A DNA stretch of 64,000 bases. It comes from Candidatus Binatia bacterium (lineage in GTDB: Bacteria; Desulfobacterota; Binatia; HRBIN30). The stretch is taken from the NCBI GenBank assembly GCA_038245295.1, contig JBBRSP010000010.1, forward strand, positions 1 to 64,000. Direction: 5' to 3'. How positions within the stretch are numbered: position 1 is the first letter of the stretch; each line of letters begins with the position of its first letter. Shown here piece by piece: positions 1 to 61,217 of the stretch. A program made the position numbers and the translations under genes. The notes under the pieces were generated by a model. It did not search any database. It had not been told where the DNA came from and saw only the letters and a program-made list of their open reading frames with translations.

Positions 1-145
1 CCGTGTTCATCCGTGGCCAACAGCCCGTCGACGTTCCGCCTGGCTCAATCGCCACAGATGCACACAGATAAACACAGATACTTCCGAACCAGGCGGCACG
101 CGCGCCGAAGGTCGCGCCCGCGCCATCCGTGTTCATCCGTGGCCA
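1..145. repeat. Left part of the GxxExxY-associated inverted-repeat array (cut by window edge)
   Basis: ...CCGTGTTCATCCGTGGCC (1-18), 32-bp spacer, GCCACAGATGCACACAGATAAACACAGAT (51-79), ATCCGTGTTCATCCGTGGCC (125-144); same unit as 684-1147. Confidence 0.95.
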
Positions 146-149
146 TTCA

Positions 150-560
150 TTACCAATCGTGTTCACGATCGACCAGCATGCCCTGGCTGGGGCCAGCGAT
201 ACGCTTCACTTCGCAACGAGGATTCCCGAAGTTGAGCAGCAGGCACAACCCGAGCCCTGTTGCCCTCAAGTAATTGATACACTGAGCGATGTTGATGTTA
301 CTCAAAGACTTGGCGGCTTTCAGCTCGACCAAGATAGTGTCCGCCACAAGGAGATCCACGAAGTAGTCGCCGACAATCGCGCCATGATACCGGACCGTGA
401 CAGGCCACTGTTGGCGAACTAACAGACCAGAACAGCGAAGCTCGTATGCGAGCGCGTTCTCGTAAACCTTCTCTAGGAACCCAGCACCGAGCGTGTTGCT
501 GACTCGGAACGCTGCAGCAATGATCGCCCCCGTCGTCTGGTTGAGCTCCGCCTTATTCAT
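150..560 (-). CDS. GxxExxY protein (PD-(D/E)XK nuclease fold)
   Basis: LGAGFLEKVYENAL (GxxExxY), VDLLV...VELKA catalytic motif, QCINYL...LLLNFG; start taken at MNKAELNQ. Confidence 0.93.
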   Translation of the reverse strand: MNKAELNQTTGAIIAAAFRVSNTLGAGFLEKVYENALAYELRCSGLLVRQQWPVTVRYHGAIVGDYFVDLLVADTILVELKAAKSLSNINIAQCINYLRATGLGLCLLLNFGNPRCEVKRIAGPSQGMLVDREHDW

Positions 561-683
561 CCTGCAGAAACGCTGCCAACTACTCAGCGAACACACAATC
601 GCTTGGCTGCCTCGATGCATTGCAGCTAGCGGGCGCTCGGCGTTTGATCGTCACCTGGTCGACGACCGACTCCTCGGAGTAGC

Positions 684-1147
684 GCCACGGGGATACAGAC
701 CTCACGCGCACCGAAGGCCGCGCCTGCGCCATCTGTGTTTATCCGTGTTCATCCGTGGCCAACGGCGCGTCATCGTTGCGGCTGGCTCAAGCGCCACAGA
801 TGCACACAGATAACCCGACCAGACCGCACGCGCGCCGAAGGCCGCGCCCCGGCCATCTGTGTTCATCCGTGTTCATCCGTGGCCAACAGCCCGTCATCGT
901 TCCATCGGGCTCAAGCGCCACAGATGCACACAGATAAACACAGATACTTCCGAACCAGACCGCACGCGCGCCGAAGGCCGCGCCCCGGCCATCTGTGTTC
1001 ATCCGTGTTCATCCGTGGCCAACAGCGCGTCATCGTTCCATCGGGCTCAAGCGCCACAGATGAACACAGATACGTCCCGACCAGACCGCACGCGCGCCGA
1101 AGGCCGCGCCCCGGCCATCTGTGTTCATCCGTATTCATCCGTGGCCA
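684..1147. repeat. Right part of the GxxExxY-associated array: about 3.5 tandem units of 124-136 bp built from inverted repeat pairs
   Basis: ATCTGTGTT(C/T)ATCCGT(G/A)TTCATCCGTGGCC at 731, 855, 991, 1117; inverted GCCACAGATG(C/A)ACACAGAT at 793, 917, 1053; degenerate copy at 684. Confidence 0.95.
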
Positions 1148-1183
1148 ACACCCTGTCGACGCTCGCCACGGCCCGCAAAGGAC

Positions 1184-1534
1184 CTACGGCTTGACGATCC
1201 CGGCACTCACAACCACCGCAACGCCCAGCGCCGCAACCGCCACGTAACAAAACCAGCCGGCGACGATCGATGAGAGATGCCGTCCGCGAAACCACGGACG
1301 TCGCACCGCAGCGAAGACGGCTAGCGTCGGGAGGCCGACGAATACGGCGCCGAGCACGGCGCCTTCGGTCCATGGGTCACCGGCGTTGAGAACGGAGAAC
1401 GCGACGGAGATCGCGACGCCGGCCACCACGATCGTTGCCGGAAGGGTCCAGTAGATCGAGGCGCGCGCGTCGCGGCTGGCCGTGGCGATACTCGCGAGAA
1501 TGGCGGGCCACAGGAGGAATACGAGGAAGTCCAT
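1184..1534 (-). CDS. Small integral membrane protein (about 4 TM)
   Basis: Hydrophobic ORF from MDFLVFLLWP; AAGGA upstream. Confidence 0.6.
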   Translation of the reverse strand: MDFLVFLLWPAILASIATASRDARASIYWTLPATIVVAGVAISVAFSVLNAGDPWTEGAVLGAVFVGLPTLAVFAAVRRPWFRGRHLSSIVAGWFCYVAVAALGVAVVVSAGIVKP

Positions 1535-1574
1535 CAGCGTCCTTGCGTGACAACGAGTGGCGGGCGTCGCTGTC

Positions 1575-3512
1575 CTACGCACCGTAGAGCAGCCGGAGCA
1601 AGGCGATGACATCGGCGGCGGTGACTCTTCCGTCAGCATTGACGTCGGCTTCGAGCGGCGTCGGCGTGACGTTGCCGTAGATCACGTGTTGCAGCGCTTC
1701 GAGGTCGCGCTCGTCGACGCTGCCATCCAGGTTGGCGTCGCCGCGCAGCGGCGGAGGTGTTGGGGTGCCGGTAGGTGATGCGGTCGCGGTGAACGACGCG
1801 GTCGCCGTCGCTGTGGCCGTCACCGACGGCGTCGCGGTGGGTGTTGCCGTTGGTGTGGCCGTCGGCGTCGACGTCGGCAGGTCGGTATTGGTTGCCGTCG
1901 CCGTCGGCAGGGGTGTGTCGGTTGCGGTCGGCGTCGGCGTCGTGCTTGGCGTCGAGGTGGGCGTCGACGTCGGCGTCGCGGTGGGTGTGTCGGTCACCGT
2001 TGATGTCGGCGATGGTGTGGCCGTCGCGGTTGGTGTGGCGGTTTGCGTCGGCGTCGGAGTCGGGGTGTTTGTCGGGGTGTCGGTCGGCGTCGACGTTGGA
2101 GTTGGTGTCGATGACGGTGTGGCGGTTGCGGTCGGCGTCGACGTCGAGGTGCGGCTCGGCGTCGACGTTGGGGTGGGCGTCGGCTGCTCCCAACACACTT
2201 CTAAATACAGACTCGTGGTGCGGATCGGGTCGTTCAACGACACTTGATGGGCAATGCCGAGTCGGGTGGTGGCGACGTCGTCCCATGTCCAAAGGCGGCC
2301 GAATAAAGGGTGTGTGCAGACACCCGGCGCCGTGCCGCAGAAGATGGCGAGGTAGTCCTGGTAGTTCACCGTCACCGGCTGCTGCACGGCGGCGTTCTGG
2401 CGCACCCCCGTGCCGGTGCGCAGATAGGTCCGCACCGTGTCGGCGCCGACGCCGCGCTCCGAACGCGACACGGCATGGACGGCGACGTAGTTGATGCGTT
2501 CCACGTGTGGTGGCGCAGCACTCAGGACGTACTCGTCCTCGACCGGCCCTGACAATCCGGTGGCCGTATCCCAATGAATGTACGACGCGTCGCCATCGTT
2601 GCCGTTGAGACAACTGAAATTCTGTGCGGCGCCAAAAGCTTTGTTCTTCGGCGGCAGGCTGTTGCCGATCGGCCCGACGGCGATGCAGTTCGGGCGCGAC
2701 GTCGGGAACGTTGTCGCGGTCGGGGTTGGCGTCGACACGATACAGCGCCCCGACACCGCGTCGCAGCTACCATTGTACACGGGGGTACCCTGTGAACCAC
2801 AACCGACGTCGGTTGCGGGCGCGCCGCAGAGCGAAACAACGCCGGCCTGGTACTGACAACAATCGGACGGCCCCGGCGTCGGCGTTTGGGTGATCGTCGG
2901 GGTCGTAGTGGCGGTCGGCGTTGCCGTTTGCGTCGCGGTTTGGGTGGCAGTGGGCGTCTGTGTCGACGTCGGGCTCGGCGACGCGGTCGGCGTCGCCGTT
3001 TGACTCGGGAGATGGGTCAACGTCGGCGTACCGGTCTGCGTGGGCGTTGGGGTGAAGACGGCGCACGTGCCGCCAATACAGGCGGCGTTGAAGACGATCA
3101 GGCCGCTGCCGCACGAGCCGTTGGTCGGCGCACCACAGAACAAGGAACCGCTGACGTTGATCTGGCAGCAGTCACCGCTCCCCGGCGTAACCGTAGGCGT
3201 GCGTGTCACCGTCGGTGTCGGCGTGATCGTCGGCGTGCGCGTTCCGGTCGGCAGCTTGGTGCTGGTGCGTGTCTGGGTGATGGTCGACGTTGGCGTCGAA
3301 GAACGCGTCGACGTCACGGTTGGCGTCGAGGTCGGCGTCCAAGTACTGGATGGTGTGCGGGTCGCAGTTGGCGTGCGCGTGAACGTGCGGGTCGCATTGG
3401 ACGTCGGCGTCACGCCGAGGGCCGACGCGTCCCATGATAAAGCGGCGATCGAGAGGGCCACGAGGCCCAGTCGCCAAATTGAGCTAACGATCACCGTGAT
3501 CCTTCCTAGCAC
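1575..3512 (-). CDS. Secreted Thr/Pro-rich protein with two Cys-rich modules and a C-terminal dockerin-like domain
   Basis: Signal peptide; (T-X)n linkers; two DCCQ...CGAP modules; C-terminal [15 protein letters not shown]...[14 protein letters not shown]. Confidence 0.85.
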
Positions 3513-3733
3513 GCGAACATCCGATGAGAAGAACGGGCGCGCTAGCGAGGATTGACCAGACGCACAACGGCGGCGCCGAAATCAAGGCGGCCGTTGAGGT
3601 TCCGACCTACCATGATTGACACACCCTTTGTTCAAGCCCTAACTACGTCGGCTGTGCGCCCTGTTCGCCCGTCGGCCCCGCCTGAAGGAGTGTTCATGAT
3701 CTCCCGTCGTCCGTACCCGTTAAAATCCAGGCG

Positions 3734-3877
3734 CCCCCTCTCCCACATCGAGTGGACCGGCGGCGTGTGGGAGAGGGTCGGGGTGAGGGTACACACGCGT
3801 AGCTGCTCCACTCCGCTGGCAGGCCCTCACCCTAACCCTCTCCCAGCGGCGTCCATCCATTTGAACCGGGAGAGGGG
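3734..3877. repeat. Inverted pair of CCCTCTCCC...GGGAGAGGG palindromic repeats
   Basis: CCCCCTCTCCC-loop-GGGAGAGGGTCGGGGTGAGGG then CCCTCACCCTAACCCTCTCCC-loop-GGGAGAGGGG; related copies near 21786, 38861, 60993. Confidence 0.85.
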
Positions 3878-3930
3878 ATGTTTGCGCACACCAGCTTCGA
3901 GGGGACCGCGATGCAGGAAGAGCATGTCCC

Positions 3931-4980
3931 ATGAAGCGTGAGCGGCTGCGGATCATTCTGCCGTTGCTGCTGGTCGTCGGCGGACTTGGCTACTACCTCT
4001 GGCAATTGCGCGCCACCGAGTTGGTGTTGACTGGCATCGTGACGACGCACGAAGTGATCGTCAGCCCACAGATCGCCGGGCGCATCGACAAGTTGTTGGT
4101 CAACGACGGCGACACCGTGAAACGCGACCAGTTGCTGGTTTCTATCGTGCCGGACGAGCTGCGCGCCGACAGCGCTTTCTACAGCCACAGCGCCGAGGGC
4201 CTGGCGTCACAGGTCAAAGAGAGCGAAGCGGCGCTGCGGCTGCAGGAGAAACAAACCACCGATCAAATCCGCCAGGCCGAGGCCATGCTGGCTTCCTCTG
4301 AATCGCAGCTGGTGGCGGCCCAGGCCGACACGGAAAACGTACGTTTGCGCTTCGAGCGCAATCAGCAGCTCAAACCGCAGGGTGTCGTCTCTACCGAAGA
4401 GTTCGATCAAACGCGCACCGCCTACGACGCCGCCAAGGCGCGTGTCGATTCGCTGCGCAAACAGGCCGACGCGGCGCGCGCGACATTGGAGTTGGCGCGT
4501 TCGAACGCTGAGCAGACCGAGATGCGCAGCCAGGCCTTGCACGCCAGCCAGCAGCAGCAAGAAGCCGCGGCAGCGCAACGCGCCAAGGCCGATGTGCGCC
4601 TCGCCTACACGTCGATCACCGCACCGATCGATGCAACGGTGGATGTCGTCGCGGTGCGCCAGGGAGAAGTGGTGAGCCCAGGCCAGCCCCTGCTGACGCT
4701 GATCAACCCCGACGACCTCTGGGTGCGCGTCGACATCGAAGAGACGTATATCGACCGTATCCGTATCGGCGACACCATGACGGTTCGTTTGCCCTCCGGC
4801 GACGAACGCCAAGGGAGTGTGTTTTTTCGCGGCGTGGATGCCGGCTTTGCGACACAGCGCGATGTCAGCCGTTTCAAGCGCGACATCAAGACGTTCGAGG
4901 TCCGCCTGCGCGTCGACAATCGCGATCGCCGTCTTGCTGTTGGTATGACCGCCTACATCCAGCTCGCACTGTCGCACTGA
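3931..4980 (+). CDS. HlyD-family membrane fusion protein of an ABC exporter
   Basis: N-terminal TM, biotinyl-like GRIDKLLVNDGDTVKRDQLL, long coiled coil, ITAPID...GEVVSPGQPL. Confidence 0.92.
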   Translation: MKRERLRIILPLLLVVGGLGYYLWQLRATELVLTGIVTTHEVIVSPQIAGRIDKLLVNDGDTVKRDQLLVSIVPDELRADSAFYSHSAEGLASQVKESEAALRLQEKQTTDQIRQAEAMLASSESQLVAAQADTENVRLRFERNQQLKPQGVVSTEEFDQTRTAYDAAKARVDSLRKQADAARATLELARSNAEQTEMRSQALHASQQQQEAAAAQRAKADVRLAYTSITAPIDATVDVVAVRQGEVVSPGQPLLTLINPDDLWVRVDIEETYIDRIRIGDTMTVRLPSGDERQGSVFFRGVDAGFATQRDVSRFKRDIKTFEVRLRVDNRDRRLAVGMTAYIQLALSH

Positions 4981-5966
4981 TGCTGGCCATCGACGTCCGC
5001 GAGATCGTCAAGCGCTTCGGCGAGTTCACGGCAGTGAACGGCGTCAGCTTCTCGGTTCAATCCGGTGAGATCTTTGGGCTGCTGGGGCCGAACGGCGCCG
5101 GCAAGTCGACCTTGATCCGCATGTTGACGACGCTGCTGCCGCCGAGCGCCGGCACGGCGAGCGTCGGCGGCTGCGACATCGTCGCGGATCCCGACGGCGT
5201 GCGGCACGTGATCGGCGTCATTCCGCAGGCGATGACGAGTGATCTCGAGCTCAGCGTGTACGAAAATCTACTGATCTTCGCCAAGCTCTACGGTGTGGCG
5301 CGCAGCAAGCGCGAACGTCTGATCGCCGAGCTACTCGAGGCGGTGGAGCTGACCCAATGGGCCGACAAGCAGGTGAAGAACCTGTCGGGCGGCATGCGGC
5401 GGCGGGTTGAGATCGCCCGCGGCCTGGTGCACGAACCGAGCATCTTCTTTCTCGACGAGCCTACGACGGGCTTGGATCCGGTATCGCGCGTCGCCGTATG
5501 GGGAATGATCCAGCGTGTCCAGAAGGAGCGCAACCTGACAGTGCTGCTGACGACGCACTACATGGACGAGGCCGACAAGCTTTGTGATCGCATCGCCATC
5601 GTCGATCACGGAAAACTCATGGCGCTCGACTCGCCAATGCGTTTGAAGGCGTCGATCCCCGGGAAGAACGTTCTGGAGGTCAGCTTCGCCAGCCCGCCAG
5701 AGGGTTGGGATCGGGCCCTGGCGGCGCTGCCGAACGTCGAAAGCGTCACCGGCGAAGACGATCTGTTCCGCATCGCCTCCGACAACGGCCCGGCGACGAC
5801 GACGGCTCTGATGGAAATGGCGTCGCGGGTCGGGGTCACGGTTCTTTCCCTCTCGGTGCAAAGCACGTCGCTCGACGATGTCTTCGTGCATTACACCGGC
5901 CACGCTCTGCGCGACGCGCTGCAGAATGCGTCACCGCTCGACGGACCATTCATGCTGCGCCGCTAG
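4980..5966 (+). CDS. ABC transporter ATP-binding protein (DrrA-like)
   Basis: Walker A GPNGAGKST, LSGGM signature, FLDEPT, TTHYMDEA; start overlaps upstream stop. Confidence 0.95.
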   Translation: MLAIDVREIVKRFGEFTAVNGVSFSVQSGEIFGLLGPNGAGKSTLIRMLTTLLPPSAGTASVGGCDIVADPDGVRHVIGVIPQAMTSDLELSVYENLLIFAKLYGVARSKRERLIAELLEAVELTQWADKQVKNLSGGMRRRVEIARGLVHEPSIFFLDEPTTGLDPVSRVAVWGMIQRVQKERNLTVLLTTHYMDEADKLCDRIAIVDHGKLMALDSPMRLKASIPGKNVLEVSFASPPEGWDRALAALPNVESVTGEDDLFRIASDNGPATTTALMEMASRVGVTVLSLSVQSTSLDDVFVHYTGHALRDALQNASPLDGPFMLRR

Positions 5967-7098: not shown

Positions 7099-7306
7099 CC
7101 GCAGGCTGAACCCTGCGCCTTACCAATGCATCCGAGGGAAAGCGGGTAGGCGCAGGCTGAAGAGGCTGTCTCAAAACCTTGCGGAGCCGGCTTCGACAGG
7201 CTCAGCCTGAGCGGGTGCTTGGTTGATTTTCAAAGACATTTTGTCCGCTCGCCCTGAGCCCGTCGAAGGGTGAGCCTGGGTTTTGAGACAGCCTCTTCAG
7301 CCTGCG
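7099..7306. repeat. GTAG-type REP doublet whose right REP is interrupted by a MITE
   Basis: CCGCAGGCTGAACCCTGCGCCTTACC ... GTAGGCGCAGGCTGAA|MITE|TTCAGCCTGCG. Confidence 0.9.
7162..7295. mobile_element. 134-bp MITE, copy 1 (TIR GAGGCTGTCTCAAAAC), carrying an internal CTTCGACAGGCTCAG/CTGAGCCCGTCGAAG repeat pair
   Basis: Perfect terminal inverted repeats; near-identical copy at 9532-9665. Confidence 0.9.
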
Positions 7307-7525
7307 GCGTGTGGTGCATCGGTGAGAGTGCCTACGGGCGTCGCTTCGCGAGCCAGGCTCCGAAGCCGCCGAGGGCGGCGACGTAGACGAGATGCTTCAC
7401 GGCCTTGAGAGCGCCGGTGTGCGCCGCGACGAGGCGCCGCGCACAATTGCCAACGGCGCAAAGCAGCCTTGCGCTTTTGGGAGGGCACGTTGCGCCGATG
7501 CGGCACCGCGCTACCTAGGGACGCC

Positions 7526-45376: not shown

Positions 45377-45587
45377 GGACCTTGTCGGTGCAAACCTTGC
45401 ACCAAGCGCACGCCGGCAACCGCAATAAGGTTGCAACCGCGGAACGCCGCGGCGATTCCCAGCGATGGATCGGGGCACGGCGCGGATTTCTTGGGAATGG
45501 GAGGTGGCGTCGGCGCGCCAGCCGATCTTGCGCACAACGAAGAACACGAGGTGGGCTTTGCCCGCAACCCAACGCAGGCTTATTGCT

Positions 45588-45690
45588 GCCACAGATGAAT
45601 GGGATGAGCACAGATGGCTTGTAAACAGACATCGCCAGCATCGCAGGCCCGACGGGCCTGCATCTGTGTGCATCGGTGTCCATCCGTGGC
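45588..45690. repeat. Solo, gene-free copy of the GxxExxY-type inverted repeat pair
   Basis: GCCACAGATGAATGGGATGAGCACAGAT...ATCTGTGTGCATCGGTGTCCATCCGTGGC; further half-site GCCACGGATAAACACAG at 45768. Confidence 0.85.
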
Positions 45691-45829
45691 AAAGAGCGGC
45701 TGGTGGTGTGTAGGTCGCTCAATCTTCGCGCGCCGCGATGATCCTGCGAGATTGAAAGCGGTTCGTTGCCACGGATAAACACAGCCCGGCCGTTGGCCGG
45801 AACCGACTCAGGCCAAGCAGTCCTACCTC

Positions 45830-46008
45830 CGTCATTCCGGCGAAAGCCGGAATCTCCCAAGCGTTCCGCAGGTTCCAATCGAGGAGATCCCGGCTTTCGA
45901 GACCGTCGATAATGTCTAGGGCGGGCTTCGAGACGCCTGTCCTGATCTACGTCGAACGGGCCTCACGGATCGGATTTCACCAAGTGGGCCTCCTCAGCCC
46001 GAACGGGG
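45830..46008. repeat. CGTC-type REP doublet interrupted by a MITE-like end at 45899
   Basis: CGTCATTCCGGCGAAAGCCGGAATCTC...GAGATCCCGGCTTTC|GAGACCGTCGAT..., followed by CTTCGAGACGCC...CTCCTCAGCCCGAACGG. Confidence 0.7.
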
Positions 46009-61069: not shown

Positions 61070-61217
61070 CGTCGTCCCGGCCTCCGAGTCTGTCGACTTT
61101 CTCTGATTCATCATTTGAAGCAGCGCAAACACCTCCGTCATACCGGCGAAAGCCGGTATCTCCCCAGCATTCTCGGCCTTCCACTCGAGGAGATCCCGGC
61201 TTTCGCCGGGATGACGT
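61070..61217. mobile_element. Inverted, one-ended copy of the inner MITE at 10575-10734, inside a CGTC REP half
   Basis: CGTCGTCCCGGCCTCC|GAGTCTGTCGACTTTCTCTGATTCATC...GTCATACCGGCGAAAGCCGGTATCTC...GAGATCCCGGCTTTCGCCGGGATGACG. Confidence 0.8.

Follow-up and report, generated by a model that had tools for sequence, protein, structure and literature searches.

The window, by which we mean the whole 64,000-nt stretch of the Candidatus Binatia bacterium genome that was analysed, opens with an array of hairpin units in which a gene of the GxxExxY nuclease family is embedded (Table 1). The arms of these hairpins consist of two to three copies of a CRCNGAT heptamer with a 10-bp period, and the arm logo is a repeated AAC-CRCNGAT-GAA. 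The array units are 86–96% identical to each other over aligned columns, and their hairpins fold with z values of −5 to −10 on the minus strand. From the positions at which GTGGCC ends and GCCAC starts it follows that four spacers (19–50, 761–792, 885–916, and 1021–1052) are exactly 32 bp long, as a preliminary description of this DNA had stated. The unit lengths of 124, 136, and 126 bp given there were recovered as well (repeat family D4), and the sequence confirms that the fifth spacer (145–683) is replaced by the GxxExxY gene and its upstream region. The layout drawn in that description holds for spacers and units but needs amending in two places: the arm at 684–700 has degenerated, and the first letters of the window already belong to an arm. 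Read in the direction of the gene, the locus begins with three complete hairpin units and one whose right arm has decayed; the gene comes next, followed by a fifth unit and part of a sixth. The gene segment joins the array 1–3 nt from outer arm ends, as read directly in the window. Contig C10 begins with the window, and the end of contig C6 overlaps it by 91 nt and contributes one further partial unit, which terminates in an arm of another type. Because the window opens mid-arm and this overlap adds a partial unit, the true array may exceed its assembled length.

Table 1. Features of the array and of other repeat-bearing sites in the window
Feature	Position	Strand	Remark
GTGGCC ends	18, 144, 760, 884, 1020, 1146		Read from sequence
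GCCAC starts	51, 684, 793, 917, 1053		Read from sequence
Left arm (gene orientation)	1–18	−	Truncated by contig start, runs on into C6
Outer spacer	19–50		32 bp
Three-unit arm	51–79	+	CRCNGAT, 10-bp period
Inner spacer	80–124		45 bp, with GC-rich mini-hairpin
Two-unit arm	125–144	−	Immediately past the stop codon of the gene
GxxExxY / PDDEXK_3 nuclease gene	150–560	−	136 aa, ATG at 560
Upstream region of gene	561–683	−	With the gene, stands in for a 32-bp spacer
Degenerate arm	684–700	+
Three-unit arm	731–760	−
124-bp unit	761–884		32-bp spacer, two-unit arm 793–811, inner spacer, three-unit arm 855–884
136-bp unit	885–1020		32-bp spacer, arm 917–945, inner spacer, arm 991–1020
126-bp unit	1021–1146		32-bp spacer, arm 1053–1071, inner spacer, arm 1117–1146
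Protein-coding gene	1575–3512	−	645 aa, long Thr-Pro repeats, dockerin-like C-terminus
CCCTCACCC-type hairpin repeat	3769–3844		Inverted
Nested inverted repeat	7129–7309		Downstream of ABC permease gene
Relic CACGAAG-type arm	~45533–45551
Gene-less hairpin	45587–45692	+	Arm family of the array, different inner spacer
Lone arm	~45767–45790
GTCATTCCGGC-type palindromic repeat	45831–45854, 61192–61215

A search of Rfam with positions 1–5000 of the window gave no match at the gathering score and two miRNA matches far under threshold, and no sigma-70-like promoter was found. No empty allele of the site was found either: the contigs of four DNA runs gave repeat-derived joints, and a pattern scan of metagenomes gave zero matches. 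The AU test for a horizontal origin of the gene returned p = 0.49. Low-complexity proteins resembling the 645-aa product listed in Table 1 occur in dozens per genome across the order.

The encoded protein scored 129 bits against TIGR04256 (cut-off 35) and 129.1 against PF13366 (cut-off 22). Residues E30, D69, E79, and K81 and the motif Q93xxxY97 are intact in it; G25, E30, Y33, D69, E79, K81, and R120 were invariant in all 72 aligned proteins, and Q93xxxY97 was nearly so. A structure model (pLDDT 92) has as its closest folds the Cas4 protein SSO0001 (Z 8.0, rmsd 5.7, 110 residues aligned; Foldseek E 4e-4), lambda-type exonucleases, and restriction-like folds; such middling Z scores give the fold class, not the function. 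The assignment to GxxExxY proteins with a PD-(D/E)XK fold made in the preliminary description is borne out by the profile scores, the catalytic residues, and the neighbours of the model. The protein shares the fold and the E...D...ExK...QxxxY motifs with Cas4, RecB, and lambda exonuclease, but it differs from that group in lacking the Fe-S cysteine set, in having only 136 aa, and in having no CRISPR array or Cas1 nearby. No solved relative was found by sequence.

GxxExxY proteins form a large family, with 18,032 clusters at 50% identity with E ≤ 1e-10, and they are rare on plasmids (7 of 72,556) and phages (0 of 50,697). In the accessible part of one source, the function of the family is given as unknown, with multiple transfers (PMC3424549). 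The active site was intact in 100 of 103 single-domain proteins. Tandem two-domain proteins made up 47 of the best 150 representatives, a ranking in which summed scores favour them, and 46 of these 47 fusions (among P0001–P0125) had exactly one intact D/E/K site, with two sites in none. Since the GxxExxY tyrosine is invariant even in the dead domain (24 aligned fusions), its role is probably a structural one and not that of a nucleophile. We infer that the protein may act as a dimer for which one cut is enough, without rejoining of the HUH kind.

The arms are a property of the family rather than of this locus. Taking an inverted-repeat score of at least 14 around the gene as presence of arms, we found them at 101 of 124 genes and in 3 of 227 shifted control windows (of 140 loci, two were dropped for lack of a tblastn hit and 14 for lack of 200-nt flanks), which bears out the proposed enrichment of repeats beside GxxExxY genes. 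Among 87 rows of the close clade, 57 had the layout left arm–gene–right arm, and in eight a left arm stood on either side. The left arm usually extends into the region in which the gene starts. Only three had the nearest arms facing outward as in the window; the layout seen here, in which complete hairpins enclose the gene, belongs to a minority. At locus L080 the whole hairpin is duplicated, with one copy on each side of the gene, and tandem arrays are also present at L046, L079, and L088. Two-domain genes often have complete hairpins on both sides, as in the window; an inverted repeat scoring at least 14 was present at 34 of 55 two-domain loci, compared with 1 of 70 controls, and their arms (among L295–L374) have a distinct middle unit at 35 of 47 loci, by a pattern set after inspection.

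The sequence of the arms co-varies with the phylogeny of the protein, a relation that the preliminary description had proposed to test. On a protein tree of 113 columns, from which five genes with internal stops were excluded, 94 rows labelled by arm patterns of our own making (36 unlabelled rows and three duplicates were left out) required 16 changes of arm type; shuffled labels required 30.1 on average and at least 26, and none of 500 shuffles came as low. The FLEKVY clade has GAT arms with a period of 10, the GLLES clade GAG/AAG arms with a period of 9, and the FLEAVY clade GAT arms with a period of 9–10. Further loci agree on inspection, 28 of 66 of them being unlabelled by the patterns used. 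The arm type of the window persists across hosts of 37–70% GC, archaea included. Gene and arms are associated, and arm and protein have co-evolved. Additional arm types were noted at L378 and L387, where GxxExxY genes stand beside TCAGGAA-type heptamer arrays, and in a divergent GxxExxY clade on viral contigs (L290, L292–L294), with AT-rich arms, a longer period, and inverted-repeat scores of 38–53.

The preliminary description also proposed to test whether the number of repeats in a genome depends on the gene. At least five triplet arms were present in 21 of 23 gene-positive relatives and in 1 of 17 gene-negative ones, and in 26 of 35 gene-positive and 6 of 85 gene-negative genomes of the phylum. 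After a hand count removing three hits per gene match, 19 of 23 relatives and 18 of 35 phylum genomes remained, in a sample whose kin are not independent. Among genomes of no more than six listed contigs, four gene-positive ones had 6–97 hits and five gene-negative ones had none. The association is qualified by six gene-less assemblies with 20–176 triplet arms (G059, G073, G093, G108, G138, and G139), all drafts of 100–760 contigs; in five of the six, a profile search for the gene found at most one 24-residue scrap. Gene loss, an assembly gap, or another driver could be responsible.

Within this genome, the arm doublet pattern has 49 matches, compared with none in the reversed genome, and 43 of the 49 are extragenic, in a genome of which about 17% is non-coding by simple in-house gene calls. 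Gene-less hairpins are dispersed in it: 22 left arms were found, 17 of them paired with a right arm, and their inner spacer differs from that of the array. They are often nested within CACGAAG- or ACAGGAT-type arms, of which the genome carries 32 and 31 doublets, respectively, without a gene of either type. No convincing case of another gene family inside arms was found in this genome and at 30 loci of gene-less genomes, in the limited view that a narrow pattern affords. The second GxxExxY gene of this genome (G000:C12:78240–78730, L013) lies inside CGCAGAG-type inverted arms, squeezed into the gap that separates the stop of the gene upstream from the dnaE2 start. The site before dnaE2 is common to five genomes of the order, so some copies are old and static; the arm variants differ in four of the five.

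The window also holds repeats of other families. The CCCTCACCC-type hairpin repeat is a second abundant REP-like family, with 103 matches in the genome and none in its reverse, and the GTCATTCCGGC-type palindromic repeat is a third, with 68 matches and none in the reverse. The segment at 45.5–46.0 kb is a mosaic of three kinds of repeat: arm-family sequences, the GTCATTCCGGC-type palindrome, and a hairpin of the CTTCGAGACG type. In the nested repeat downstream of the ABC permease gene, GAGGCTGTCTCAAAAC-type outer ends enclose a CTTCGACAGGCTCAG-type hairpin, an arrangement resembling a MITE that carries a hairpin as its passenger.

Comparison of related genomes revealed that gene and cognate arms move as a unit. 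Five pairs of cassettes that are 89–98% identical over 397–530 bp occupy separate sites, either within a single genome or in sister genomes, and the gene has up to nine matches per genome. At one orthologous site (L383 and L381), a GAT-type cassette stands in one genome and an AAG-type cassette is nested within the same outer arms in the other; at a second (L379 and L388), a GAC-type cassette departs from its GAG-type counterpart within the first unit of the arm, with the old right arm left in place. In both swaps the junctions are in or beside arms. In two of the five cassette pairs, one junction falls at a gene boundary rather than at an arm, and one pair (L376/L377) has an extended shell with a possible 6–8 bp duplication. 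At L383 a copied left arm and gene precede an empty hairpin, leaving the arm duplicated, and internally deleted copies trail the gene in tandem at L032, L033, L218, and L227. The cassettes thus land in or replace other arm elements and give rise to tandem or deleted derivatives. The longest direct repeats around 37 cassettes were no longer than in shuffled pairs, and the one type of end that was tested in this genome showed no target duplication. The 69 loci compared had 64 distinct upstream neighbourhoods; their hosts are distant, so that synteny would not be expected anyway.

Some arms demonstrably travel by a secondary route, inside IS-derived MITE shells. The relative G015 has a young family of about 190 bp with arms within its outer ends and a 5-bp YTNAR duplication (of 17 copies, 12 have it exactly, four with one mismatch, and one lacks it). 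A MITE family with CCCGAAAA ends and the 5-bp YTNAR duplication was observed in G015, G001, and G005 (L196–L211, L236–L255), with varying passenger hairpins; the G005 copies are at contig ends. Outer ends of the CCCGAAAA type are absent from the genome studied here. Because the same shells also hold unrelated hairpins, we rejected the YTNAR duplication as a signature of GxxExxY.

We compared these features with known systems. Insertion sequences carry one gene between terminal inverted repeats and have internally deleted, gene-less derivatives (MITEs). The GxxExxY gene resembles them in lying between terminal inverted repeats at most loci, in having gene-less deleted copies, and in occurring as near-identical copies at several sites. 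It differs in that the element, of about 0.45–0.5 kb, has no DDE, HUH, serine, tyrosine, or DEDD transposase, shows no consistent target duplication, and is joined for the most part to arms that were already there. Free-standing homing endonucleases, including the PD-(D/E)XK enzyme I-Ssp6803I, are small nucleases without joining activity that spread by cutting and host recombination. By analogy, the GxxExxY protein may likewise be a small nuclease without joining activity that spreads in this way, although it is not found in an intron or intein, has no single conserved site, and has a dispersed repeat family alongside it.

The closest parallel is with the REPIN/REP-RAYT system (REPtron, BIMEs), of which the preliminary description had called the locus a non-HUH analog. 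In the accessible parts of the sources, RAYT is an HUH enzyme with a GTAG tag whose single-copy gene does not jump (PMC8266576; 10.1101/2021.07.10.451892), REPIN clusters are ordered tandems with one cluster beside each RAYT (PMC3116915), and REPINs were not detected in archaea (10.1101/2021.07.10.451892). So far as those parts describe it, both systems consist of extragenic hairpins of about 100 bp with two conserved inverted arms and a variable spacer, and both have dispersed copies as well as ordered tandem clusters of near-identical units by the enzyme gene; both enzymes are rare on plasmids and phages, and both enzyme–repeat pairs co-evolve. On the same reading, the enzyme is HUH/Y1 there and PD-(D/E)XK here; the GTAG/CGTC tag before a short palindrome has no counterpart in our arms, which are runs of heptamers and, unlike REPs, not themselves palindromes; and GxxExxY with its arms also occurs in archaea. 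The RAYT gene is moreover single-copy, non-jumping, and vertically inherited, whereas the GxxExxY gene usually lies within the arms, is multi-copy, and is mobile, with some old sites. The analogy is good for enrichment and co-variation. Repeat abundance is strongly associated with the gene, apart from the six repeat-rich, gene-less drafts. The analogy fails in that the gene is usually inside the arms, is often multi-copy, and is itself mobile.

The nuclease–repeat mobile system is real, and the locus is its array-embedded form. We think that the locus is probably one representative of a minimal but widely distributed selfish element whose protein binds and nicks the arms while host recombination copies cassettes into existing arms. 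Such an element would comprise one PD-(D/E)XK nuclease gene, arms of two to three heptamers about one helical turn apart, and a set of hairpins that lack the gene. The protein would work in dimeric or oligomeric form, would recognise the heptamers either in duplex or in extruded DNA, and may nick near the outer unit of an arm. Given a protein without rejoining chemistry, homology- or microhomology-driven recombination by the host would copy the segment into an existing arm, and on this proposal the arms would be both binding site and landing pad. The products would be lone and nested cassettes, duplicated arms, and tandem arrays, all without target duplication. In the window, empty hairpins may have been amplified locally into a tandem, which the gene segment entered at arm ends or in which it rode along.

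Two other readings concern regulation and RNA. The arms could be operators for expression of the gene itself or of its neighbours (or the protein a mild addiction or defence nuclease), with movement resulting from host recombination between repeats and involving no programmed nick. The overlap of the left arm with the gene start region suits this reading, heptamers at a helical period resemble protein-binding arrays, and left and right arms match barely better in register than out of register (0.77 vs 0.74), as copies of a motif would. We nevertheless regard it as unlikely, since it leaves unexplained the gene-less hairpins, which number dozens to hundreds and go with the presence of the gene, the strict keeping of one active site, and the cassette swaps at arm ends. 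Alternatively, the arms could pair in the transcript, so that an insertion folds away between co-transcribed genes in the manner of an IVS, and the protein would be a hairpin-specific RNase that processes transcripts of cassettes and arrays. The units of the window do fold much better on the strand of the gene, via G-U pairs (−65.1 vs −44.8 kcal/mol), genes of the same direction flank 17 of the 30 spacers that are occupied, and tRNA-splicing endonucleases are among the weak fold matches. Against this, spacers between genes of the same direction are the most frequent kind in the background too (1036 of 1907), and an RNase by itself would not move DNA. Strand-specific selection for an RNA hairpin was unsupported across cassettes: 37 of them have no sense-strand G-U bias (33 G-U vs 27 A-C), and dispersed copies are not clearly oriented with respect to transcription (6 vs 4). 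An RNA system thus seems quite improbable.

It is also conceivable that another mover, DDE-type MITEs or RAYT, spreads the repeats and that the GxxExxY gene once fell into one of them. The G015 family described above, the existence of repeat-rich assemblies without the gene, and five Y1-transposase matches in this genome speak for such a passenger. However, the outer ends of the G015 family enclose unrelated hairpins too and are absent from this genome, the 37 cassettes have no excess of direct repeats, and co-variation with arm sequence across phyla would not be expected of a passenger. Nor do Y1 loci have the arms: this genome's five Y1/RAYT-type genes are without them, and a triplet arm was found at none of 17 Y1-transposase loci, compared with 75 of 134 GxxExxY loci, and we rejected RAYT as the driver. 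This explanation is largely refuted as a general one, and we give it very little credence.

Returning to the proposed nicking of arms by the GxxExxY protein, we give an even chance to a wider proposal: GxxExxY proteins would be sequence-reading nickases of an undescribed class of mobile elements without transposase chemistry of their own, the heptamer arms would serve as recognition code and landing pad, each clade would read its own heptamer and period, and the element would seed REPIN-like hairpins in bacteria and archaea. The nuclease–repeat system is apparently undescribed. Literature searches with GxxExxY, the family accessions, combined terms, and arm sequences found no description of a gene–arm system, although one might be contained in a catalogue of motifs in a supplement or a subscription journal. 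In the portions of the literature accessible to us, GxxExxY is mentioned incidentally, and the accessible part of PMC3733652 does not mention the family.

In summary, the arms supply a family of unknown function with a concrete, clade-specific candidate substrate, which makes a first assay straightforward. If the proposed mechanism is true, it would extend mobile-element chemistry beyond the DDE, HUH, serine, tyrosine, and DEDD classes and would account for the abundant unnamed intergenic hairpins in many environmental phyla. It would also mean that a REPIN-like system of independent origin exists, archaea included, and that nucleases of 130 residues possess a natural protein-to-heptamer code.
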